Sequence record: NC_055781.1
Source of the DNA: Escherichia phage p000v
Direction: 5' to 3' (one strand)
Length of the DNA: 64,000 bases
The notes under the pieces are model-generated. The model was not told where the DNA came from. It was given only the letters and a program-made list of their open reading frames with translations, and did not search any database. Shown one piece after another: positions 13,841-23,143 of this stretch. The position numbers and the translations under genes were made by a program. How positions within the stretch are numbered: position 1 is the first letter of the stretch; each line of letters starts with the position of its first letter.

Positions 13841-16552
13841 ATGAAAGAATTTTACTTAACGGTTGAACAGATTGGTGATTCAATTTTTGAACGTTACATC
13901 GATTCTAATGGCCGTGAACGTACTCGTGAAGTAGAATATAAACCATCACTGTTTGCTCATTGTCCGGAAAGTCAGGCTACGAAATATTTTGATATCTACG
14001 GTAAGCCGTGTACTCGTAAACTATTCGCTAACATGCGTGATGCGTCTCAATGGATTAAACGCATGGAAGATATCGGACTTGAAGCACTTGGCATGGACGA
14101 TTTCAAATTAGCGTATTTGTCTGACACTTATAACTATGAAATCAAATACGACCATACAAAAATTCGTGTGGCTAACTTCGACATCGAAGTAACATCTCCG
14201 GATGGGTTCCCTGAGCCGTCACAAGCAAAACATCCTATTGATGCTATCACCCATTATGACTCAATTGACGACAGGTTCTACGTATTTGATCTATTGAATT
14301 CTCCATATGGTAATGTAGAAGAATGGTCTATTGAAATCGCTGCTAAGCTTCAAGAACAAGGTGGTGATGAAGTTCCATCTGAAATTATCGATAAAATCAT
14401 TTATATGCCGTTCGATAACGAAAAAGAATTGTTGATGGAATATCTCAACTTCTGGCAACAGAAAACTCCTGTCATTTTGACTGGATGGAACGTTGAGTCA
14501 TTTGATATTCCATATGTGTATAACAGAATCAAGAATATTTTTGGCGAATCTACTGCGAAACGTTTATCACCACATCGTAAAACTCGTGTTAAAGTTATCG
14601 AAAACATGTATGGTTCTCGTGAAATCATTACATTGTTCGGTATCTCTGTTCTTGATTACATTGACCTTTACAAAAAATTCTCTTTTACCAATCAACCGTC
14701 GTATTCTCTGGATTACATTTCAGAATTTGAATTGAACGTTGGTAAACTGAAATATGACGGCCCTATTTCTAAGCTTCGTGAAAGCAATCACCAACGATAT
14801 ATTTCTTATAACATCATCGACGTGTATCGTGTATTGCAAATTGATGCTAAGCGCCAGTTCATCAACTTGAGTTTGGACATGGGTTATTATGCTAAGATAC
14901 AGATTCAATCTGTGTTCAGCCCAATTAAAACATGGGATGCTATTATTTTTAATAGCCTTAAAGAGCAGAACAAGGTGATTCCACAAGGTCGTTCTCACCC
15001 GGTTCAACCTTATCCTGGCGCTTTTGTTAAGGAACCTATTCCAAATCGATACAAATATGTAATGAGTTTCGACCTTACATCTCTGTATCCAAGTATTATT
15101 CGCCAAGTGAATATTAGCCCAGAAACAATAGCAGGAACGTTTAAAGTAGCTCCATTGCATGATTATATTAACGCAATCGCTGAACGTCCTTCAGATGTGT
15201 ACAGCTGCTCTCCTAATGGCATGATGTATTATAAAGACCGTGATGGTGTAGTTCCAACTGAAATCACTAAGGTCTTTAATCAACGTAAAGAACATAAAGG
15301 TTACATGCTTGCAGCTCAACGTAATGGTGAAATAATTAAAGAGGCATTGCATAATCCTAATCTTTCTGTTGACGAACCATTAGATGTTGATTATCGTTTC
15401 GACTTCACTGATGAGATTAAAGAAAAGATTAAAAAGTTGTCTGCTAAATCTCTTAATGAAATGTTGTTCAGAGCTCAACGTACTGAAGTTGCAGGTATGA
15501 CTGCACAAATTAACCGTAAATTGCTTATCAACTCACTTTATGGTGCACTTGGAAACGTTTGGTTCCGTTATTACGATTTGCGTAATGCAACTGCAATCAC
15601 AACATTTGGTCAAATGGCTTTACAGTGGATTGAACGTAAAGTTAATGAATATCTGAATGAAGTTTGTGGTACAGAAGGTGAAGCTTTCGTTCTTTATGGT
15701 GATACAGACTCTATTTACGTATCTGCAGATAAAATTATTGATAAGGTTGGTGAATCTAAATTCCGTGATACCAACCATTGGGTGGACTTTTTAGATAAGT
15801 TTGCACGTGAACGTATGGAACCGGCTATTGATAGAGGTTTCCGTGAAATGTGTGAATACATGAACAATAAACAACACTTAATGTTCATGGACCGAGAAGC
15901 TATCGCTGGTCCTCCGCTCGGTTCTAAAGGTATTGGTGGATTCTGGACTGGTAAGAAACGTTATGCATTAAACGTGTGGGATATGGAAGGTACTCGTTAC
16001 GCTGAGCCTAAACTCAAAATCATGGGTCTAGAGACTCAGAAATCTTCGACCCCTAAAGCAGTACAGAAAGCTCTTAAAGAATGTATTCGTCGTATGCTTC
16101 AAGAAGGTGAAGAATCATTACAAGAATATTTTAAAGAGTTTGAAAAAGAATTCCGTCAATTGAATTATATTAGCATCGCGTCGGTATCTTCTGCGAATAA
16201 CATTGCTAAATATGACGTTGGTGGATTCCCTGGTCCTAAATGCCCGTTCCATATTCGTGGAATTCTGACATATAACAGAGCTATCAAAGGTAATATTGAT
16301 GCTCCACAAGTTGTAGAAGGCGAAAAGGTATACGTTCTGCCTTTACGTGATGGAAACCCGTTCGGTGATAAATGTATCGCATGGCCTTCTGGTACTGAAA
16401 TCACAGATTTAATTAAAGACGACGTACTTCATTGGATGGACTACACTGTTCTCCTTGAGAAGACATTTATTAAACCACTTGAAGGATTCACATCAGCAGC
16501 GAAACTCGATTACGAGAAGAAAGCATCTCTGTTCGATATGTTCGATTTTTGA
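13841..16552 (+). CDS. 43: DNA polymerase gp43 (family B, with 3'-5' exonuclease)
   Basis: 903 aa; exo motif FDIEV, polymerase motifs DLTSLYPSII, KLLINSLYG, YGDTDS; sequence matches RB69 polymerase as recalled. Confidence 0.97.
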   Translation: MKEFYLTVEQIGDSIFERYIDSNGRERTREVEYKPSLFAHCPESQATKYFDIYGKPCTRKLFANMRDASQWIKRMEDIGLEALGMDDFKLAYLSDTYNYEIKYDHTKIRVANFDIEVTSPDGFPEPSQAKHPIDAITHYDSIDDRFYVFDLLNSPYGNVEEWSIEIAAKLQEQGGDEVPSEIIDKIIYMPFDNEKELLMEYLNFWQQKTPVILTGWNVESFDIPYVYNRIKNIFGESTAKRLSPHRKTRVKVIENMYGSREIITLFGISVLDYIDLYKKFSFTNQPSYSLDYISEFELNVGKLKYDGPISKLRESNHQRYISYNIIDVYRVLQIDAKRQFINLSLDMGYYAKIQIQSVFSPIKTWDAIIFNSLKEQNKVIPQGRSHPVQPYPGAFVKEPIPNRYKYVMSFDLTSLYPSIIRQVNISPETIAGTFKVAPLHDYINAIAERPSDVYSCSPNGMMYYKDRDGVVPTEITKVFNQRKEHKGYMLAAQRNGEIIKEALHNPNLSVDEPLDVDYRFDFTDEIKEKIKKLSAKSLNEMLFRAQRTEVAGMTAQINRKLLINSLYGALGNVWFRYYDLRNATAITTFGQMALQWIERKVNEYLNEVCGTEGEAFVLYGDTDSIYVSADKIIDKVGESKFRDTNHWVDFLDKFARERMEPAIDRGFREMCEYMNNKQHLMFMDREAIAGPPLGSKGIGGFWTGKKRYALNVWDMEGTRYAEPKLKIMGLETQKSSTPKAVQKALKECIRRMLQEGEESLQEYFKEFEKEFRQLNYISIASVSSANNIAKYDVGGFPGPKCPFHIRGILTYNRAIKGNIDAPQVVEGEKVYVLPLRDGNPFGDKCIAWPSGTEITDLIKDDVLHWMDYTVLLEKTFIKPLEGFTSAAKLDYEKKASLFDMFDF

Positions 16553-16592
16553 TATAATGCCATGGACGGTAAACTAATTAAATGAGAGAAAT

Positions 16593-17228
16593 ATGAAAAC
16601 TACACCAATCACTATCGCTATTGACGCAATCGTAAAACAAGCTTCATCTCTTGCCACTATGGCTAAAGTAATTAGTCAAAACTCTGCCCGATATAATGCT
16701 ATTCTTGAAACTCTTCGTCGCCCTGGACTGAGTAATTATGAAAGCCGAGTAATTATTACAGGTGTTGGTAAGAACGCTAATATCGCAACTAAAGCTTCCG
16801 AGACTTTTGCTTCACTAGGTATTCCTAGCATGTATTTGAACACCGGGCATTATTCTCATGGCGACGCAGGATTTATTGCACCTAATGATGTATTAGTTCA
16901 CATCAGTCGTTCTGGTAAGACTGAAGAAATGATAGGTGTTGCTAAACATCTTCGTATGATTCGTCCTCAGGTTAAACAGATTCTGTTACATTGTAACCCT
17001 GACATTCCGCAAGAATACGAAGCTCTTTTTGATTATACGTTCTGTACAGGCATCGCGGTAGAGGTTGATGAGAATTCTCTGGCTCCGACCATGTCCACTA
17101 CATTGTTGTTAGCGCTTATCGATACGTTTGCTATCAACCTTTCGTCTGAACGTGGATTTACCTCTAATGACTTCCTTAAGTTCCACCCTGGTGGTGCACT
17201 AGGTGCCATGTTACGAGGCGAACAATGA
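16593..17228 (+). CDS. SIS-domain sugar-phosphate isomerase, arabinose-5-phosphate isomerase-like (KdsD/GutQ N-domain type)
   Basis: 211 aa; VIITGVGKNANIA, HISRSGKTEE and C-terminal HPGGALG motifs typical of A5P isomerases; no CBS domains. Confidence 0.75.
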   Translation: MKTTPITIAIDAIVKQASSLATMAKVISQNSARYNAILETLRRPGLSNYESRVIITGVGKNANIATKASETFASLGIPSMYLNTGHYSHGDAGFIAPNDVLVHISRSGKTEEMIGVAKHLRMIRPQVKQILLHCNPDIPQEYEALFDYTFCTGIAVEVDENSLAPTMSTTLLLALIDTFAINLSSERGFTSNDFLKFHPGGALGAMLRGEQ

Positions 17229-17368
17229 AAGCAATAACAATAGGACTTTTACTATTGATGCTTGTCATGACTATCTACTGGAGCTTAACGGCTCCAGTAA
17301 TGATTCCGACTCTTATAATCGGATGGATTATGATTGGACTACAAGCAAAGTATGAATGCTTTAACTAG
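17225..17368 (+). CDS. small two-helix membrane peptide (47 aa)
   Basis: ATGA overlap with isomerase stop; MKAITIGLLLLMLVMTIYWSLTAPVMIPTLIIGWIMIGL; below ORF-track cutoff. Confidence 0.35.
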   Translation: MKAITIGLLLLMLVMTIYWSLTAPVMIPTLIIGWIMIGLQAKYECFN

Positions 17369-17381
17369 AATAGTGTACAAT
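17357..17381 (+). promoter_or_regulatory. MotA-dependent middle promoter upstream of the nucleotidyltransferase-kinase gene
   Basis: TGCTTTA box, 12-nt spacer, TACAAT -10; 28 nt before the ATG at 17410. Confidence 0.5.
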
Positions 17382-17409
17382 ACACCTACTTACCAATGAG
17401 GACTTCAAC

Positions 17410-19095
17410 ATGAAAAAAGCTGTTATTCTTGGTGCTGGACTGGCAACTCGTTTGTATCCAATAACGCACCATATTCCTAAGGTGCTTGTTAACTATAAAC
17501 AAGACACTATTCTGAGCAATTTGTATACAATTTATTCTGACCTTGGCGCAGATGAAATTATTGTAGTAGTTCATTCAAAATTTGCTGAAACTGTTCGAGC
17601 TTATTGCGAGCAAGAAGGGTTCAATGTGACTATTCGTACAGTTGATGAAGCGTATGGTTCTGCTTATGCTCTTGCTAAATTATACAAAGATTTAGATGGC
17701 CATAACGTAATTGTTAACTGGTGTGATATTATTCCTGACTTTGGTTCATGGTCTTGGAATGTTAACGCAATCTATGTTAAGGGTGATGAATGTCGATATA
17801 ATTTCGATGGTGAAAATATCACTAACGTAGGTTCAACAGGTGGTAATGTTGTAGGAATTTATCAGTTCAAAGACTGGGAATTCTACATGGGTTCTACTGA
17901 TGAGGAAATTCACGAATACTGCAAAGGTCGTGATTTCGTAGAATTCCTTTACGGCAGTGCATTCAATAAATCAGAGCTTATGAATCTAATTGATTTAGGT
18001 GATATGCCTAAACTTGAAAAGGCTCATGAAGTTCGTGAACTGAATCGTAGTTTTAATGCAGTTGAAATTGGCGAAGAAACTGTAACTAAATTCGCGTTAA
18101 CCGAACAAGGTCGAGCTCTTCAAAAAGATGAGATTTCATGGTATTTGAAAGTGAAATCAGATTCAGTTCCTCAGTTAGTTTCGGTAAATGAAAATAATTT
18201 TGAAATGGAACGTATTAAAGGTAAGCCGGCATTTGAATATATTAAATCCAAATCAAGTCTTGCTCGTCCACAAATTGTTGATGCAATTTTAGATGCACTG
18301 AAATTCAGCACGGACACTTATTTTGTAAGTCCTGAAACTGTTCGCCGTGATTTCACTAAAGAGTTCTATACGAAAGTTATTGATCGTTGTGAAAGCATTC
18401 AGCCATTGATTGATTCATTTGGTAAAATCACACGTGTGAACTACACTAAGATTGGACGTCTGAAGCCAATGTTGAAACAAGCTTTAGAACATCTTATTCG
18501 TTATCATAACCGTTCTCAGGGACAGTACTCTGTTATTCATGGTGACCCGAACTTCAGTAATACTATGATTACCGATAACGGCGAAGTCAAGTTTATCGAC
18601 CCTCGTGGATATTTTGGTGAAACCAAGATTTACGGGCCAAAATTGTATGATGAAGCTAAAGTGCTTTATGCTGTTTCAGGTTATGATGAATTCAATGCTA
18701 ATCCGACCTGGGGTCAGTTTACTATTGATGAAACAACTTGTAATGTGACTATTAACATCAATCCATTAGTTTACAAATATGGAAAGATGAGTTCGTTTAA
18801 CGAGTATCATCATTTGGCAGTAGCAATTATCTGGATTGCATTAGGTGGTTATTTCAAGAATAATCCACTTAAAGCGGTTGCCGCATATTATAAAGGTATG
18901 GAACTTCTGACTAAGCAATTACGTAACATGGGCCGTGTACTTCAAGACGGCTCTATTAGTTATGACGTAGCAGAACCTGTAACGGCTACTCTGATTACAA
19001 AAAATCCTGGTAAATGGGTACTAACTGATAAAGAAACTGGTGTTTCCTATCGTCCAATCGGCGGCGATATCACTCATCAATGGGAACGAATCTAA
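17410..19095 (+). CDS. bifunctional sugar-1-phosphate nucleotidyltransferase (N-terminal) / sugar kinase of APH-choline-kinase type (C-terminal)
   Basis: 561 aa; N-terminal KKAVILGAGLATRLYPIT (G-x-G-T-R-L-x-P-x-T nucleotidyltransferase signature); C-terminal HGDPNFSNTMI...IDPRG catalytic-loop-like motifs. Confidence 0.7.
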   Translation: MKKAVILGAGLATRLYPITHHIPKVLVNYKQDTILSNLYTIYSDLGADEIIVVVHSKFAETVRAYCEQEGFNVTIRTVDEAYGSAYALAKLYKDLDGHNVIVNWCDIIPDFGSWSWNVNAIYVKGDECRYNFDGENITNVGSTGGNVVGIYQFKDWEFYMGSTDEEIHEYCKGRDFVEFLYGSAFNKSELMNLIDLGDMPKLEKAHEVRELNRSFNAVEIGEETVTKFALTEQGRALQKDEISWYLKVKSDSVPQLVSVNENNFEMERIKGKPAFEYIKSKSSLARPQIVDAILDALKFSTDTYFVSPETVRRDFTKEFYTKVIDRCESIQPLIDSFGKITRVNYTKIGRLKPMLKQALEHLIRYHNRSQGQYSVIHGDPNFSNTMITDNGEVKFIDPRGYFGETKIYGPKLYDEAKVLYAVSGYDEFNANPTWGQFTIDETTCNVTININPLVYKYGKMSSFNEYHHLAVAIIWIALGGYFKNNPLKAVAAYYKGMELLTKQLRNMGRVLQDGSISYDVAEPVTATLITKNPGKWVLTDKETGVSYRPIGGDITHQWERI

Positions 19096-19481
19096 TGCAC
19101 CGTGTAGAAAACATGCTTAATCTTTGTTTTGATGTCGATGATTGTATAACAGAGTGGAATAACAATCGTGATTACGTGAACTTCAAACCAGACGTCGAAA
19201 TGGTGTCTGCCATTAATGCCCTGTATGATGCAGGGCATACCATAACGCTTTACACTGCCCGTGGTATGAAGTCGGTAGGTCCTGGTCGTATAGCAATTGA
19301 CATTCTCCCAAGTCTGATTCAGAACTTGGAAAACATTGGTTTGAAGTACCATAATTTGCTAACACATAAACCAGTATATGATTGGATTATCGACGACAAA
19401 GCTATGCGTCCTGACGAATTCAAAGCTCTTATGAATAAAGGCGAATTCGAAACATTTAAATCATATAAACCAAATCTATAA
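19095..19481 (+). CDS. small HAD-like phosphatase (putative)
   Basis: about 129 aa from ATG overlapping upstream stop (TAATG); FDVDDCIT resembles HAD motif I, WIIDDK resembles motif IV; capless. Confidence 0.45.
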   Translation: MHRVENMLNLCFDVDDCITEWNNNRDYVNFKPDVEMVSAINALYDAGHTITLYTARGMKSVGPGRIAIDILPSLIQNLENIGLKYHNLLTHKPVYDWIIDDKAMRPDEFKALMNKGEFETFKSYKPNL

Positions 19482-19538
19482 TAATTTAAGTAAGACCTGC
19501 AAAAACCATCGCATCAATTAACGCGAGATGCAAAAAAA

Positions 19539-20699
19539 ATGAATACTTTTAAAATCGGAACGAATTTTGATTTAGCTCTTCTTGATAAAATCGTAGAGCT
19601 CAATAAAACCTATCCTAATAGCTTGATAAACGAAGTATATGGCTCTACAAGAGAAATGGCTTTTGTAGCAGCCAGACCTGATTTTAGGCTTCCTGACGTT
19701 GACAAAAAGATGTTAGAAGACTACGTTAAACGTTGTAACGAATTAGGTATTTGCTTTAACTATACACTCAACACGATAAATCCTGGTTCAAAAAGAGAAC
19801 TAGTTGAGTGGAAGAAGAAAGCTATTCAGGATTATGTTCAGTATCTTTGGTCAATAGGCGTATGGCGTATTACTATCGCTAACCCTGTTGTTATGGAAAT
19901 TGTTCGTGAAGTCAATAAAGATATTGAGATTGAAGTTTCAACAATTCTACATGTCGATGCGGTAACTCAAATCAAATACTTACATGACCAATATAACATC
20001 AAAAAGGTCTGTTGCGGAATTCATAAGAACCGTTCAGTTTCTTTCCTGAAGCGTGCAGCAGAGTTTTGCAATAAGAACAATATAATATTTGAAGTTCTTG
20101 TAAATGAGTTCTGTTCTAATGCTGGTAAAGGGTATACAACACATTGTAGTTATCGTGACTCTTGCTATATTTTCCATAGTACTGATGTTACCGCTGATGA
20201 TGCTAAATCCTTAAATGGATATCCTATGCAGCACTGTATTAAAGCTCGTGATACAGACCCATTTAACTGGTTGAGAACTCGTTTTGTTCGTCCTCAAGAT
20301 TTGAAACTTTATAATGATATTGGTATCACTCAATTCAAAGTTTCAGGACGTACAGGTAGCACAGACTACATTTTGAAAGTTCTTGAAGCATACGCTTCTG
20401 AAAAGTTTGAAGGTAATTTGTTAGAACTGTGGAAGCCTTTAGAGACTATTTTCACTCTTGAAAATGAGACTGAGTTTTCACATACAGTAAATATTGAAAC
20501 CTCTTTGTTAGATGGCTTTTTAGAAAAAAGGTGGTTCAGACATCCAGATTTTGATTGTGCTAATGAAATCTGTGGGTCAACGTGTACATATTGTGAAAGG
20601 TATTATAAACGTCAATTATCTAAAAACGGGTTAGCAGAAAACTCCATATCTATTATTGATATAACTAACTCTGATGACGCTTTGAGGTACCCGGAATGA
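19539..20699 (+). CDS. Cys-rich protein, possible U32-family TIM-barrel/Fe-S enzyme
   Basis: 386 aa; motif order FKIGTNFD, NEVYGS, YTLNT, EVLVNEFCSNAGKGYTTHCSYRDSC resembles peptidase-U32 signatures by eye; C-terminal CANEICGSTCTYC Cys4 cluster. Confidence 0.35.
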   Translation: MNTFKIGTNFDLALLDKIVELNKTYPNSLINEVYGSTREMAFVAARPDFRLPDVDKKMLEDYVKRCNELGICFNYTLNTINPGSKRELVEWKKKAIQDYVQYLWSIGVWRITIANPVVMEIVREVNKDIEIEVSTILHVDAVTQIKYLHDQYNIKKVCCGIHKNRSVSFLKRAAEFCNKNNIIFEVLVNEFCSNAGKGYTTHCSYRDSCYIFHSTDVTADDAKSLNGYPMQHCIKARDTDPFNWLRTRFVRPQDLKLYNDIGITQFKVSGRTGSTDYILKVLEAYASEKFEGNLLELWKPLETIFTLENETEFSHTVNIETSLLDGFLEKRWFRHPDFDCANEICGSTCTYCERYYKRQLSKNGLAENSISIIDITNSDDALRYPE

Positions 20700-20935
20700 T
20701 TTCTAGAAAAAGTTTTAATTATAAACTTAACGAAGAGATTTTGACTATGAAACTGAACACTAACGAACAAATTCTTAAAAAGGCCCTTATGGGCCTGTTT
20801 GAAACCAAAGCGGCTAAAGTGATTAAAGAACCTGTTCAATTGGAATACTACGCTGATGCATTTCTTCATAGTGTTCTTGGAAGTATCGATGCTGAAGCTT
20901 TACGTTATATCAACATTGTCAAGAAATTCAAATAA
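20696..20935 (+). CDS. hypothetical protein
   Basis: 79 aa; ATGA overlap with upstream gene; not hydrophobic, so not Imm-like. Confidence 0.4.
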   Translation: MISRKSFNYKLNEEILTMKLNTNEQILKKALMGLFETKAAKVIKEPVQLEYYADAFLHSVLGSIDAEALRYINIVKKFK

Positions 20936-20958
20936 GCTTTACGAATTGAGTATATAAT
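20935..20958 (+). promoter_or_regulatory. middle-promoter-like element upstream of gene 42
   Basis: AGCTTTA box, 11-nt spacer, TATAAT; 20 nt before the ATG at 20978. Confidence 0.4.
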
Positions 20959-20977
20959 AAATTGTATTGAGGTAAAC

Positions 20978-21694
20978 ATGGGAAAACATAACACAATGAA
21001 ATATATCAAAGCCGCAGATTTTCAAACCGCATTTAAAGCAGTCAATCGTGAAATTTTAGAAAACCCGGAATTCGTAACTGATTCTCGTATTGGACGTTGT
21101 AATGAAATTGGGTCTATGACAGTAGTTGTTGACACTCCATCATCATTCAAAATGACCGACCCACGTATTAACCGCATCTCTTATGAATATGCCGAAGACT
21201 TCTGGAAGTTTATGATTTCTGGTGGTACCAACGCAGAAGAAGCGTTTAAGGCATATCCTAATGTCGCTAAATTTATTTCTAAACCAAAATCAGATGTTTT
21301 GCCGGCGAACTTCAACACTTTCTATGGTCCTCGCATTGCGGCCCAATTACCAACTCTTCTAAAAGAACTTAAAGAGAAGCCTAACTCCCGAAGAGTTGTG
21401 TTCCAAATTCTAGAAAGTTCTGATCAGGCTTTGCTTGATTCGGACGAAACACTTGAATATCCATGTACTGACTCAGTAACTTATTATATTCGTGATGGTA
21501 AGCTTTATACCCACTGTCATATGCGTTCTCAGAACTGTGCTGTTGTTATGCAGTTGGATTTTTATCTCCAAGGAAAATTACTTCATTATATCGCTAACGA
21601 ATGCGGTGTAGAAGTTGGTGATTATACTCATACCATGGTAAGTGCCCATGTGTTTGAACGTGATTTTGATTATGTTAAAGGATTCCTTGACTAA
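20978..21694 (+). CDS. 42: dCMP hydroxymethylase gp42 (thymidylate-synthase fold)
   Basis: 238 aa, close to T4 gp42 length; assigned by position after gene 43 and size; no catalytic motif checked by eye. Confidence 0.85.
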   Translation: MGKHNTMKYIKAADFQTAFKAVNREILENPEFVTDSRIGRCNEIGSMTVVVDTPSSFKMTDPRINRISYEYAEDFWKFMISGGTNAEEAFKAYPNVAKFISKPKSDVLPANFNTFYGPRIAAQLPTLLKELKEKPNSRRVVFQILESSDQALLDSDETLEYPCTDSVTYYIRDGKLYTHCHMRSQNCAVVMQLDFYLQGKLLHYIANECGVEVGDYTHTMVSAHVFERDFDYVKGFLD

Positions 21695-22593
21695 TGGCTA
21701 TTTTCCGCGTACCAATCTTGAGTATGCGGTCTTATGAAACTGGACAGTATGCTATCCTTAAGGATGGCAACTTCCAACTTCATTTGCACCGTGCTAATCC
21801 GGGTGATGTGATTACATATCCACGTAATGCATCTGATATTAAAGAATGCGAACGTCTTTTCCCAGAATTTAAGTTTGTTCCATTATGGTATAAAGATAAC
21901 GCGTATAACACTCGTAAATATTTCTGGACTGAAAATGAATTTGTGGTTGATTCATTAATTGATTATTATGATTGTGATTTTCTAATCACAGATATCACTG
22001 GTTATGGTGGCGCTTTTGATGTGGAATTCAATTTCAATATCACTGCAGACCCTAATAAACCACGTTTTTATATTGATGAATTCTTAAAAACCGACATGTT
22101 GTCTGTTAATCGTTCACTTCAAACTACTGTGTTGAATGAACGTCAAAAAGAAGTGCTGGTTAACGCAGGTGCAGATGGTAATAAGATTATCGTAACGCAG
22201 AAAGTTATACGTCCTTCCATCATGCAGCGTCTTGTAGGTGATTTGGCTCCTATTCATCTAGATGGTATTTTTCATCCATTTCGAATTAGTGACCCATGTT
22301 ATCGTTTTGAACAAGTGGTTGAATGTGCAATTCAATTAGGTCAACCGCTTTATATAACCGATCCAAATAATAGCTTCGACAGAAATAAGTATCCTGAAGA
22401 AGCGCTGATTCGAATTTTTAAACCAACTAAAACTGAGTACTATCAAATTCTTAAAGGACGTCCGAAAATTCAATATTTCGAAAATCCTGAAGAAGTATTC
22501 CATCCAGGTCTTGGTGAGTTCATCTACTTTAATGCTTTAATTTCTTCGCCGTATAATATACCTAAATACGAAGATGTCGTAATCGAGGAATAA
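21694..22593 (+). CDS. hypothetical protein occupying the T4 beta-glucosyltransferase slot
   Basis: 299 aa; TAATG overlap with gene 42 stop; no resemblance to T4 beta-gt seen by eye. Confidence 0.45.
   Translation: MAIFRVPILSMRSYETGQYAILKDGNFQLHLHRANPGDVITYPRNASDIKECERLFPEFKFVPLWYKDNAYNTRKYFWTENEFVVDSLIDYYDCDFLITDITGYGGAFDVEFNFNITADPNKPRFYIDEFLKTDMLSVNRSLQTTVLNERQKEVLVNAGADGNKIIVTQKVIRPSIMQRLVGDLAPIHLDGIFHPFRISDPCYRFEQVVECAIQLGQPLYITDPNNSFDRNKYPEEALIRIFKPTKTEYYQILKGRPKIQYFENPEEVFHPGLGEFIYFNALISSPYNIPKYEDVVIEE
22533..22557 (+). promoter_or_regulatory. MotA-dependent middle promoter inside the 3' end of the 299-aa gene
   Basis: TGCTTTA box, 12-nt spacer, perfect TATAAT; 38 nt before the ATG at 22595. 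Confidence 0.5.
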
Positions 22594-22594
22594 A

Positions 22595-23143
22595 ATGGCT
22601 AAAATTATTTTAGTAGATGGCCCGGATAATGCCGGTAAAACAACTTTCATTAATGACATAATGGAAATTAGTGAAAGATATGTAAAGATTGATTTCCCTA
22701 AACGAACAGTTGATGGACGTTTCGATGTTAAGTCTCGAAATGAAGTTGGCTGTTTCGAAACGATGTTGAATTATTTAGACCCTACTAAGATTTATCTGTT
22801 AGACCGTGGATATATTAGTAACTGGGTTTATGGACGTATTCGACAAGATGCGGACTCGATTCTTGACGTTTATGAACAGGACTATGTTCGTCTTTGCCAA
22901 AACCATGATGTGTTCACAATTATTTTAACACGTAACGAAATGACTGAAAGTTTTGAAGACGACCTTATTACTTTGTCTTCATTCGGTTTTAATACAGTCA
23001 TTTCACATTTTGAAGAGTTTGCAATTCATAACAAAATCCAAACATATCAATTACTTAATCATGATGGTGCTAACAAAGTTATAGGATTTAATGCAAGCGA
23101 ACGTAATGGTTTGATTACAGAAATCATCAAATGGGCTCGTTAA
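22595..23143 (+). CDS. P-loop nucleotide/nucleoside kinase-like protein (thymidylate-kinase-like fold)
   Basis: 182 aa; Walker A VDGPDNAGKTT and DR motif LLDRGYISNWVYG. Confidence 0.55.
   Translation: MAKIILVDGPDNAGKTTFINDIMEISERYVKIDFPKRTVDGRFDVKSRNEVGCFETMLNYLDPTKIYLLDRGYISNWVYGRIRQDADSILDVYEQDYVRLCQNHDVFTIILTRNEMTESFEDDLITLSSFGFNTVISHFEEFAIHNKIQTYQLLNHDGANKVIGFNASERNGLITEIIKWAR

Follow-up and report, generated by a model that had tools for sequence, protein, structure and literature searches.

The Mosigvirus orthologue of AfhF, a capless HAD phosphatase probably acting in a mutase-free route to UDP-D-arabinofuranose

The short open reading frame (ORF) downstream of a kinase-nucleotidyltransferase gene in the RB69-like Mosigvirus Escherichia phage p000v (NC_055781.1; the 64,000-nucleotide stretch that we analysed is called the window below) is very probably, at roughly 90%, the Mosigvirus orthologue of AfhF, a C0 Mg2+-dependent HAD phosphatase that helps to make UDP-D-arabinofuranose in four steps and without a mutase. 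The identity with the crystallised protein (PDB 9IQW), the fold, the motif conservation and the gene linkage are established in this analysis. The substrate and regiospecificity are those reported in a PDB title and, second-hand, in PMC13326640. The enzyme, its structure and its role in the pathway are already known from publications of 2025-2026.

The entry 9IQW, released on 2025-07-16, is titled 'phage HY126 encoded D-arabinose 1,5-diphosphate phosphatase AfhF'. The p000v protein is identical with HY126 AfhF at 127 of 128 positions, including the DVDDC motif, and the two are alike in length and start. The single difference, Glu79 in p000v and Ala in 9IQW, falls outside the four HAD motifs. 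RB69 gp51 (RB69p051, NP_861741.1), which is equated with AfhF in the account of PMC13326640 drawn on here, is identical at 126 of 128 positions, with the substitutions R3H and E79A. RB69 and p000v also share the gene order DNA polymerase, isomerase, small ORF, NT-kinase, HAD, U32, small ORF, ThyA homologue, glycosyltransferase and kinase. The gene upstream of the HAD gene is split by a sequencing error in the RB69 reference record, whereas in p000v it is an intact 561-aa ORF. The features are collected in Table 1.

Table 1 Features of the arabinosylation cluster and HAD motifs of the AfhF orthologue, numbered on the window
Feature	Position	Strand	Length	Basis
Arabinose-5-phosphate isomerase, SIS (RB69 gp55 equivalent)	16593..17228	+		Pfam SIS E 9.6e-10, relatives' annotations, PMC13326640
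AfhE-like bifunctional enzyme (RB69 ORF53_52c equivalent), AfhF partner	17410..19095	+		Pfam, PHROG 4098, literature
TAATG stop/start overlap, AfhE-like gene / AfhF gene	19093..19097	+		Sequence read
AfhF orthologue (RB69 gp51 equivalent), capless HAD phosphatase	19095..19481	+	128 aa	127/128 to PDB 9IQW
HAD motif I, D13-V-D15-D-C17	19131..19145	+		D13, D15 invariant in 46 homologues
HAD motif II, Thr54, then Arg56 (T-A-R)	19254..19262	+		T54, R56 invariant (46 homologues)
HAD motif III, Lys92 (in T-H-K-P)	19368..19370	+		K92, P93 invariant (46 homologues)
HAD motif IV, Asp100-Asp101 in WIIDDK	19392..19397	+		Both invariant (46 homologues)
Thymidylate-synthase homologue (RB69 gp48 equivalent), dCMP 5-hydroxylase	20978..21694	+		Near-identical to PDB 9IQC/9IR2/9IQU, E 2.9e-160
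Putative DNA arabinosyltransferase 1 (RB69 gp46:47 equivalent)	21694..22593	+		PHROG 3891; position matches RB69p046/047

The AF2 model of the p000v protein (pLDDT 90.9) superposes on 9IQW at 1.1 Å and has the Rossmannoid α/β core common to solved HAD enzymes. The HAD fold, proposed in a first-pass annotation made from the sequence alone, is thus present in the structure prediction. In the model, Thr54 lies at the end of strand 49-53 and Asp100-Asp101 at the end of strand 97-99, and Lys92 is in the loop following strand 87-89. From strand 1 (9-13) to the first core helix (34-45) there are only about 20 residues, and between strand 3 (87-89) and strand 4 (97-99) there are 7. As modelled, the protein is a capless (C0) HAD, with neither a C1 insert after strand 1 nor a C2 insert after strand 3, and the earlier description of a minimal capless enzyme holds.

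The DVDD-type motif near the N-terminus and the WIIDDK motif near the C-terminus, both pointed out in the first-pass annotation, are read at motif I and at 19383-19400 (W97-I-I-D100-D101-K102), respectively. Asp13, Asp15, Thr54, Arg56, Lys92, Pro93, Asp100 and Asp101 are invariant across 46 homologues. Motif I aligns with DLDGT of 1xpj, and its fifth position should be noted, since the first-pass annotation had called this motif non-canonical. The residue is indeed Cys, which is found in 4 of 189 relatives against Thr in 176, and is, judging from these sequences, a rare lineage-specific Thr-to-Cys substitution. The crystallised HY126 AfhF also carries this Cys and is reported to be active in the account of PMC13326640.

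The Pfam scan of the ORF gave no match at E ≤ 0.1. The NCBIfam model TIGR01689, 'EcbF-BcbF capsule biosynthesis phosphatase', aligns end to end with residues 7-113, though at 50.7 bits (E 1.6e-13) against a cutoff of 162 bits, and by sequence score AfhF is a relative of this subfamily, not a member. The score with TIGR01662 (HAD-IIIA) is 14.7 bits against a cutoff of 44.6. The uncharacterised mini-HADs 1xpj (Vibrio cholerae APC26283) and 2obb (Bacteroides BT_0820), about 30% identical with AfhF, resemble it in their 105-130-aa capless architecture and motif set.

The ORF runs from ATG at 19095-19097 to the TAA stop at 19479-19481, that is, 128 codons and a stop; the coordinates first given for it are correct, and the length given as about 129 aa is one residue too long. 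The upstream 561-aa ORF closes with TAA at 19093-19095, so that the stop and the start share one base in TAATG, the overlap described earlier. The annotations of CAU_ECP01 and RB69 show this one-base overlap too, though it is not universal: a 63-nt gap separates the two CDSs in Marfa, and a homing endonuclease gene is inserted at the junction in phage a20. Two further in-frame ATGs, at 19080 and 19113, lie near the start. The start at 19095 is the only one with a usable Shine-Dalgarno-like match (GGGA, −4.2 kcal/mol, 8-nt spacer), and the corresponding start is used by RB69, CAU_ECP01 and the 9IQW construct. The ATG at 19080 was rejected, being within the upstream gene with its match 14 nt away. 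The ATG at 19113 was rejected for want of a Shine-Dalgarno sequence (score +0.2), yet most distant homologues begin at the equivalent Met. In the a20 homologue, the residues before Leu10 are naturally replaced. Because of this replacement and the later start in distant homologues, the N-terminal 7-9 residues are probably dispensable. A promoter and terminator scan of the cluster gave nothing informative, with fewer promoter-like sites than in shuffled controls.

The partner of AfhF is a two-domain protein, with an N-terminal sugar-1-phosphate nucleotidyltransferase domain (Pfam NTP_transferase, residues 3-99, E 1.3e-9) and a C-terminal APH-like kinase domain (weak kinase-family matches, residues 308-409). 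According to He et al. 2026, as told in PMC13326640, the kinase domain of AfhE converts Araf-5-P to Araf-1,5-P2, AfhF takes the 5-phosphate off this compound in a Mg2+-dependent manner to give Araf-1-P, and the N-terminal domain of AfhE then produces UDP-Araf. On this account the kinase domain need not serve another role, as the first-pass annotation had it for the case of a phosphomutase. In p000v, the SIS isomerase would convert ribulose-5-P to arabinose-5-P, the AfhE-like kinase domain would phosphorylate C1 to give Araf-1,5-bisphosphate, AfhF would strip the 5-phosphate to leave Araf-1-P, and the nucleotidyltransferase domain would form UDP-Araf. UDP-D-arabinofuranose would then be the sugar donor for arabinosylation of 5-hydroxycytosine in the phage DNA. 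The abstract and Table 1 of PMC13326640 attribute the making of the acceptor base to RB69 gp48, the dCMP 5-hydroxylase, and the same table names arabinosyltransferase 1, a putative assignment in p000v, as the consumer of the activated arabinose. By HAD precedent, Asp13 would attack the 5-phosphate as the nucleophile to form an aspartyl-phosphate with Asp15 as the general acid/base, Thr54 and Lys92 would hold the phosphoryl group, and Asp100 and Asp101 would hold Mg2+.

In the ADP-heptose route, the HAD enzyme GmhB reportedly acts on a bisphosphate (Kneidinger et al. 2002). GmhB (D-glycero-D-manno-heptose-1,7-bisphosphate 7-phosphatase, HAD-IIIA, C0) and AfhF are both capless HADs whose substrate is a sugar-1,n-bisphosphate and whose target is its distal phosphate. 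In each route a SIS isomerase acts first, and the bisphosphate is then made by a kinase that forms one protein with a nucleotidyltransferase. A kinase and phosphatase pair thus replaces a mutase, AfhE/AfhF being like HldE/GmhB. GmhB is also a structural neighbour of AfhF. However, the two are only about 11-17% identical, GmhB has about 180-190 aa and binds Zn whereas AfhF is smaller by about 50 residues, and the kinase and transferase folds of the AfhF partner are unrelated to those of HldE. AfhF and GmhB are analogous in function and distantly related within the superfamily, but AfhF does not belong to the HAD-IIIA family.

The first-pass annotation had offered two roles for the enzyme, an arabinose-5-phosphate phosphatase and a phosphomutase. 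AfhF is neither, because it is reported to act on the Araf-1,5-P2 made by the AfhE kinase. Dephosphorylation of arabinose-5-phosphate to free D-arabinose, followed by C1 phosphorylation by the kinase domain, is an improbable scheme. Any sugar-phosphate phosphatase would be compatible with the HAD fold, but the combination of SIS isomerase, kinase-nucleotidyltransferase fusion and C0 HAD mirrors the ADP-heptose route, with its phosphatase reportedly working on the bisphosphate. Table 1 of PMC13326640 does describe gp51 with the words 'dephosphorylates Araf5p to Ara', an older guess that conflicts with the text of the same paper, in which AfhE acts on Araf-5-P and AfhF on Araf-1,5-P2. The depositors of the 99%-identical structure likewise name a 1,5-diphosphate substrate. 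Of the original proposal, a phosphatase step in the arabinose pathway stands; the substrate is to be replaced by Araf-1,5-bisphosphate, following the 9IQW title and that text.

A HAD-type phosphomutase turning arabinose-5-P directly into arabinose-1-P would accomplish the net conversion that the pathway requires, and HAD mutases with a bisphosphate intermediate exist. In such mutases (β-phosphoglucomutase and eukaryotic phosphomannomutase), a mobile cap domain is needed to retain and reorient this intermediate. AfhF has no cap in the AF2 model, a dedicated kinase domain, redundant with a mutase, is always co-encoded, and the enzyme is deposited as a phosphatase and reported as one in the account of PMC13326640. 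That AfhF alone is a mutase is therefore most improbable; the 5-P to 1-P conversion survives as the net chemistry of the kinase and phosphatase pair.

Equally little credence is due to a nucleotide or polynucleotide phosphatase with a task in repair or in the control of nucleotide pools, for instance a Pnkp-like 3'-phosphatase or a 5'(3')-deoxyribonucleotidase. Homologues are named 'putative polynucleotide kinase' in some GenBank records, but the ORF has no kinase domain, and such phosphatases score no better than dozens of other HADs and far below 9IQW (18.4) and 1xpj (13.0). The gene is also strictly linked to that of the sugar-activating AfhE, and the published activity, as given in PMC13326640, is on a sugar bisphosphate. 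The label 'phosphoheptose isomerase', carried by RefSeq records (including RB69p051) and PHROG 1238, is an inherited misnomer with database labels alone in its favour, refuted by the HAD rather than SIS fold and by the motif content: no SIS domain was detected in the ORF (Pfam, E ≤ 0.1), and the cluster has its genuine SIS isomerase in a separate gene (16593-17228).

The linkage of AfhF to AfhE is seen across phages. Homologues of AfhF and AfhE are found in 382 and 375 phage records, respectively, and the counts per genus are identical for nine genus names (e.g. 175/175 for Escherichia and 57/57 for Acinetobacter). With homologues in so many records and near-identity to a crystallised protein, the ORF is a real gene, not a chance frame. 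In p000v, the arabinosylation cluster is colinear with that of RB69 and the AfhF gene overlaps the AfhE-like gene. In a distant Enterococcus siphophage, a HAD gene whose product is 36% identical adjoins an AfhE homologue (E 9e-21).

Among more distant relatives, the HAD is joined in one protein to a sugar kinase, SIS isomerase or nucleotidyltransferase, or is encoded next to one. A profile search gave 3,519 clusters (50% identity) at E ≤ 1e-3, with just 4 at E ≤ 1e-30. Of the 148 top representatives that were scanned, about 19 are more than 300 aa long and contain a kinase-type motif, HGDxxxxN; the HAD part is N-terminal in most of these. Other members have a cytidylyltransferase, NeuB or cupin domain in the same chain, or are encoded by genes overlapping SIS or PfkB genes. 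AfhF may represent, as its sole characterised enzyme, a very large family of capless HADs, 100-130 aa long and for the most part without annotation. Where a partner anomeric kinase makes sugar-1,n-bisphosphates, members of this family may as a rule be the enzymes that take off the distal phosphate; we put this reading as a whole forward tentatively and at less than even odds. If it is true, the mini-HAD family would be a widespread mutase-free entry to nucleotide-sugar synthesis in bacteria and phages. A scan of genome contigs with the family alignment found one locus only, on a phage-like contig in a MAG, and gave no bacterial context because the patterns derived from that alignment fitted the phage clade too narrowly.

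The gene itself adds little to the published enzyme, structure and pathway role, and the practical value of the assignment lies in annotation. The proper name is arabinofuranose-1,5-bisphosphate 5-phosphatase (AfhF), in place of the 'phosphoheptose isomerase', 'capsule biosynthesis protein', 'polynucleotide kinase' and 'hypothetical' found in many phage records and PHROG 1238. The UDP-arabinose pathway matters because RB69-like phages, with arabinosyl-5-hydroxycytosine in their DNA, evade restriction and CRISPR nucleases, and this escape bears on the choice of phages for therapy.

As a side observation, the neighbouring U32-family gene, which adjoins a chorismate mutase gene in a related phage, may encode an O2-independent cytosine hydroxylase. 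Its product found no relative in a PDB sequence search, matches E. coli RlhA marginally in BLAST (E 0.049) and conserves the Fe-S cysteine motif only in part. The product of a 79-aa ORF has no similarity to the chorismate mutase in the same slot of another phage, and its single-sequence model is a low-confidence helical hairpin.

The ORF at 19095-19481 is a real gene, and its product is AfhF, an enzyme that has already been characterised and crystallised. The deduced protein is identical to RB69p051 at 126 of 128 positions and to the crystallised enzyme of Escherichia phage HY126 (PDB 9IQW) at 127 of 128. The region 16500-21000 shows 99.6% identity to Escherichia phage FP43 and 95-99% identity to about 150 further T4-like phage records, and the genes listed below run in the same order as RB69p056 to RB69p045. 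The relatives checked, e.g. RB69 and phage a20, belong to Mosigvirus. RB69p054, which occupies the slot of the 46-codon ORF, is described as 'similar to T4 42-imm intercistronic region'.

Features around the AfhF gene, with the comparable module of Enterococcus phage 9183 in the last line
Feature	Coordinates	Strand	Remarks
DNA polymerase gp43	13841-16552		
SIS arabinose-5-P isomerase	16593-17228		
46-codon ORF	17225-17365	+	between isomerase and AfhE; hypothetical in relatives
Nucleotidyltransferase-kinase (AfhE), 561 aa	17410-19095		
Target ORF (AfhF)	19095-19481	+	intact; 128 codons and TAA stop
ATG of target ORF	19095-19097	+	one base in common with TAA 19093-19095 of the 561-aa ORF (TAATG)
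Motif D13-V-D15-D-C17	19131-19145	+	sequence reading
Motif W-I-I-D100-D101-K	19383-19400	+	sequence reading
U32-family protein	19539-20699	+	RB69 gp50 equivalent
79-aa ORF	20696-20935	+	ATG overlaps U32 stop (ATGA); PHROG 8601 match (unknown function), RB69p049-like
Thymidylate-synthase homologue	20978-21694		near-identical to PDB 9IQC/9IR2/9IQU
299-aa protein	21694-22593		
Kinase	22595-23143		followed by UvsX
Afh-like module, phage 9183	L005:3243-8195		thymidylate kinase, thymidylate-synthase homologue, dUTPase, mini-HAD, AfhE homologue, 406-aa hypothetical protein

Further in-frame ATGs lie near the start, at 19080 and 19113. Only the ATG at 19095 is preceded by a usable Shine-Dalgarno-like element (GGGA, -4.2 kcal/mol against the anti-SD, spacer of 8 nt); the score for ATG 19113 is +0.2, and the SD-like match of ATG 19080 is 14 nt upstream. 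The 19095-type start is chosen in the CAU_ECP01 and RB69 GenBank annotations and is that of the HY126 crystal construct (...H-MHRV); most distant AfhF homologues start at the equivalent of Met7. The first-pass annotation gave a length of about 129 aa, one more than the codons before the stop, and correctly described both sequence motifs, the start overlapping the upstream stop and the coupling with the kinase-nucleotidyltransferase gene. The overlap itself is dispensable for the AfhE/AfhF system, since the two CDSs are 63 nt apart in Klebsiella phage Marfa, where AfhF has its own annotated RBS, and since a homing-endonuclease gene lies exactly at the AfhE/AfhF junction in phage a20 (L002:2765-3526). 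The residues before Leu10 are swapped out in a20 AfhF, which reads MKPLH-LCVDVDD... A second homing-endonuclease gene is found between AfhF and U32 in Erwinia phage Virsaitis27 (L013:3352-3990), and the arabinosylation cluster is an apparent hotspot of mobile endonuclease insertion.

The predicted secondary structure of AfhF consists of strands 9-13, 49-53, 87-89, and 97-99 and helices 34-45, 66-80, and 106-115, which form a minimal Rossmannoid core, and contains no insertion able to form a C1 or C2 cap. The protein is therefore a minimal capless HAD, as originally proposed. The residues invariant in 46 homologues include D13 and D15 (motif I), T54 and R56 (motif II region), K92 and P93 (motif III), and D100 and D101 (motif IV). 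By HAD precedent, Asp13 would be the nucleophile and Asp15 the acid/base, Thr54 and Lys92 would bind the phosphoryl group, and Asp100/101 would be the Mg2+ ligands. Motif I is D-I-D-N-T in most homologues, and its fifth position is Thr in 176 of 189 family members, with Val in seven, Cys in four, and Ile in two; among the aligned homologues, Cys is limited to Mosigvirus sequences and Pectobacterium phage PM2. Motif I of the target is thus non-canonical, as first noted, in that its Cys is rare. The HY126 enzyme, which is reported to be active, carries the same Cys; the change is a tolerated substitution and no sign of different chemistry.

No Pfam model catches the protein, and the only NCBIfam match, TIGR01689 ('EcbF-BcbF capsule biosynthesis phosphatase'), scores 50.7 bits, below its 162-bit cutoff. 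The match to PHROG 1238 is strong (E 6e-43). The name of this group, 'phosphoheptose isomerase', is wrong, as a SIS domain is undetected and the fold is HAD. This misannotation of a HAD phosphatase is widespread in RefSeq (RB69 included) and PHROGs; other labels in the records are 'capsule biosynthesis protein', 'polynucleotide kinase', and 'hypothetical'.

In the probable pathway, the SIS isomerase would first turn ribulose-5-P into Ara-5-P. The kinase domain of AfhE would form Araf-1,5-P2, from which AfhF would release Araf-1-P; the N-terminal domain of AfhE would convert this to UDP-Araf, and glycosyltransferases would move the arabinose onto DNA. The ADP-heptose pathway follows the same logic, with a SIS isomerase, a kinase-nucleotidyltransferase fusion, and a capless HAD phosphatase, namely GmhA, HldE, and the 7-phosphatase GmhB, respectively. 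The first-pass annotation also considered a phosphomutase, with the kinase domain serving another role. The known HAD mutases all depend on a cap that retains the bisphosphate intermediate, AfhF has none, and the kinase domain is always co-encoded, so the mutase reading fails; another role for the kinase is not needed, the kinase and the phosphatase jointly standing in for a mutase.

According to the summary of He et al. 2026 and Mahler et al. 2025 by Lee et al. (2026, PMC13326640), AfhF is a phosphatase that requires Mg2+ and produces Araf-1-P from Araf-1,5-bisphosphate, and RB69 gp52:53 and gp51 correspond to AfhE and AfhF, respectively. Ara-5-P, the substrate suggested at first, is thus not the reported one; the guess was reasonable, because Table 1 of that paper keeps the older wording 'Araf5p to Ara'. 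The initial interpretation is right about fold, lack of a cap, pathway, and coupling, and wrong about the substrate and the mutase alternative. As PMC13326640 shows, the final product decorates 5-hydroxycytosine and not 5-hydroxymethylcytosine, as believed in 2018 (PMC6024577); the thymidylate-synthase homologue supplies the 5-hydroxy-dCMP.

Comparative data support the AfhF assignment independently. Homologues of AfhF and AfhE were found by tblastn in 382 and 375 phage records, respectively, with equal counts for nine genus names: Escherichia (175), Acinetobacter (57), Klebsiella (25), Shigella (15), Enterobacter (9), Serratia (9), 'Enterobacteria' (8), Proteus (7), and Yersinia (6). In the distant siphophage 9183, the gene for a HAD 36% identical to AfhF directly precedes that for a 544-aa AfhE homologue (E 9e-21 over both domains), and the pair adjoins genes for a thymidylate-synthase homologue, dUTPase, and thymidylate kinase. 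This Afh-like gene order, in a siphophage of a Gram-positive host, suggests that 9183 DNA contains a glycosylated hydroxypyrimidine. An AfhE-like protein occurs in 17 Vibrio phage records, Vibrio being outside the ten commonest genus names of AfhF matches (the tenth having six records). The mini-HAD occurs in 20 Synechococcus phage records, and Synechococcus is outside the ten commonest names of AfhE matches, with at least one record, S-SRM01, matching AfhE. These two lineages may pair the parts differently.

A profile search over 1.84 billion cluster representatives gave 3,519 relatives at E <= 1e-3, 1,511 at E <= 1e-10, and only four at E <= 1e-30, so the AfhF clade proper is narrow and phage-borne within a large family. 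Among the top 148 representatives scanned for architecture, 79 are no longer than 160 aa and stand alone, and 19 exceed 300 aa and contain an HGDxxxxN kinase-type motif, the HAD part being N-terminal in most; other fusions involve cytidylyltransferase, NeuB, and cupin/mannose-6-P-isomerase domains. On two metagenomic contigs (L007:5390-6282; L010:1329-2765), the mini-HAD gene either overlaps one for a SIS protein or comes after PfkB-kinase and cupin genes. Distant mini-HADs of cyanophages, e.g. Synechococcus phage S-SSM7 (L004:2941-5715), adjoin small nucleotidyltransferases and a carbohydrate kinase. The cyanophage and metagenomic contexts keep the isomerase/kinase/phosphatase/transferase logic but build it from other parts. 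Such fusions and neighbourhoods suggest that an anomeric kinase with a mini-HAD acting on the distal phosphate may be a common mutase-free path to nucleotide sugars.

The downstream neighbour of AfhF belongs to the Peptidase_U32 family (Pfam E 7e-11), and its RB69 orthologue is listed just as 'sugar or heterocycle reductase' (PMC13326640). U32 proteins are now seen as O2-independent, prephenate-dependent hydroxylases: 5-hydroxycytidine in 23S rRNA requires RlhA, ho5U in tRNA requires TrhP, and the anaerobic synthesis of ubiquinone requires UbiU/V (PMC5727448, PMC6599085, PMC10990095). The neighbour may likewise hydroxylate cytosine at C5 in an O2-independent, prephenate-dependent reaction. An anaerobic 5-hydroxycytosine route complementing the O2/flavin-dependent ThyA homologue would accord with three observations. 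First, in Virsaitis27 (U32 locus at L013:3992-5502), the U32 stop codon is overlapped by the gene for a genuine type II chorismate mutase (Pfam CM_2, 44.6 bits; cutoff 27), the product of which is prephenate. Second, the U32 gene is present in 220 phage records, and Acinetobacter, a strict aerobe, is missing from the top ten genus names (three records for the tenth), whereas AfhE and AfhF occur in 57 Acinetobacter-phage records. Third, no U32 match falls below 80% identity, not even where the identity of AfhE is as low as 42-54%. On the other hand, the similarity to RlhA is marginal, and only two Fe-S cysteines align with UbiU, the motif being partly conserved; both points count against the hydroxylase reading. 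A literature search, with He et al. 2026 outside its reach, yielded no paper linking the phage U32 gene to cytosine hydroxylation. The 79-aa ORF occupies the same slot as the chorismate mutase in Winklervirus. It has no sequence similarity to that enzyme and is predicted to be a helical hairpin (pLDDT 71, single-sequence AF2 model).
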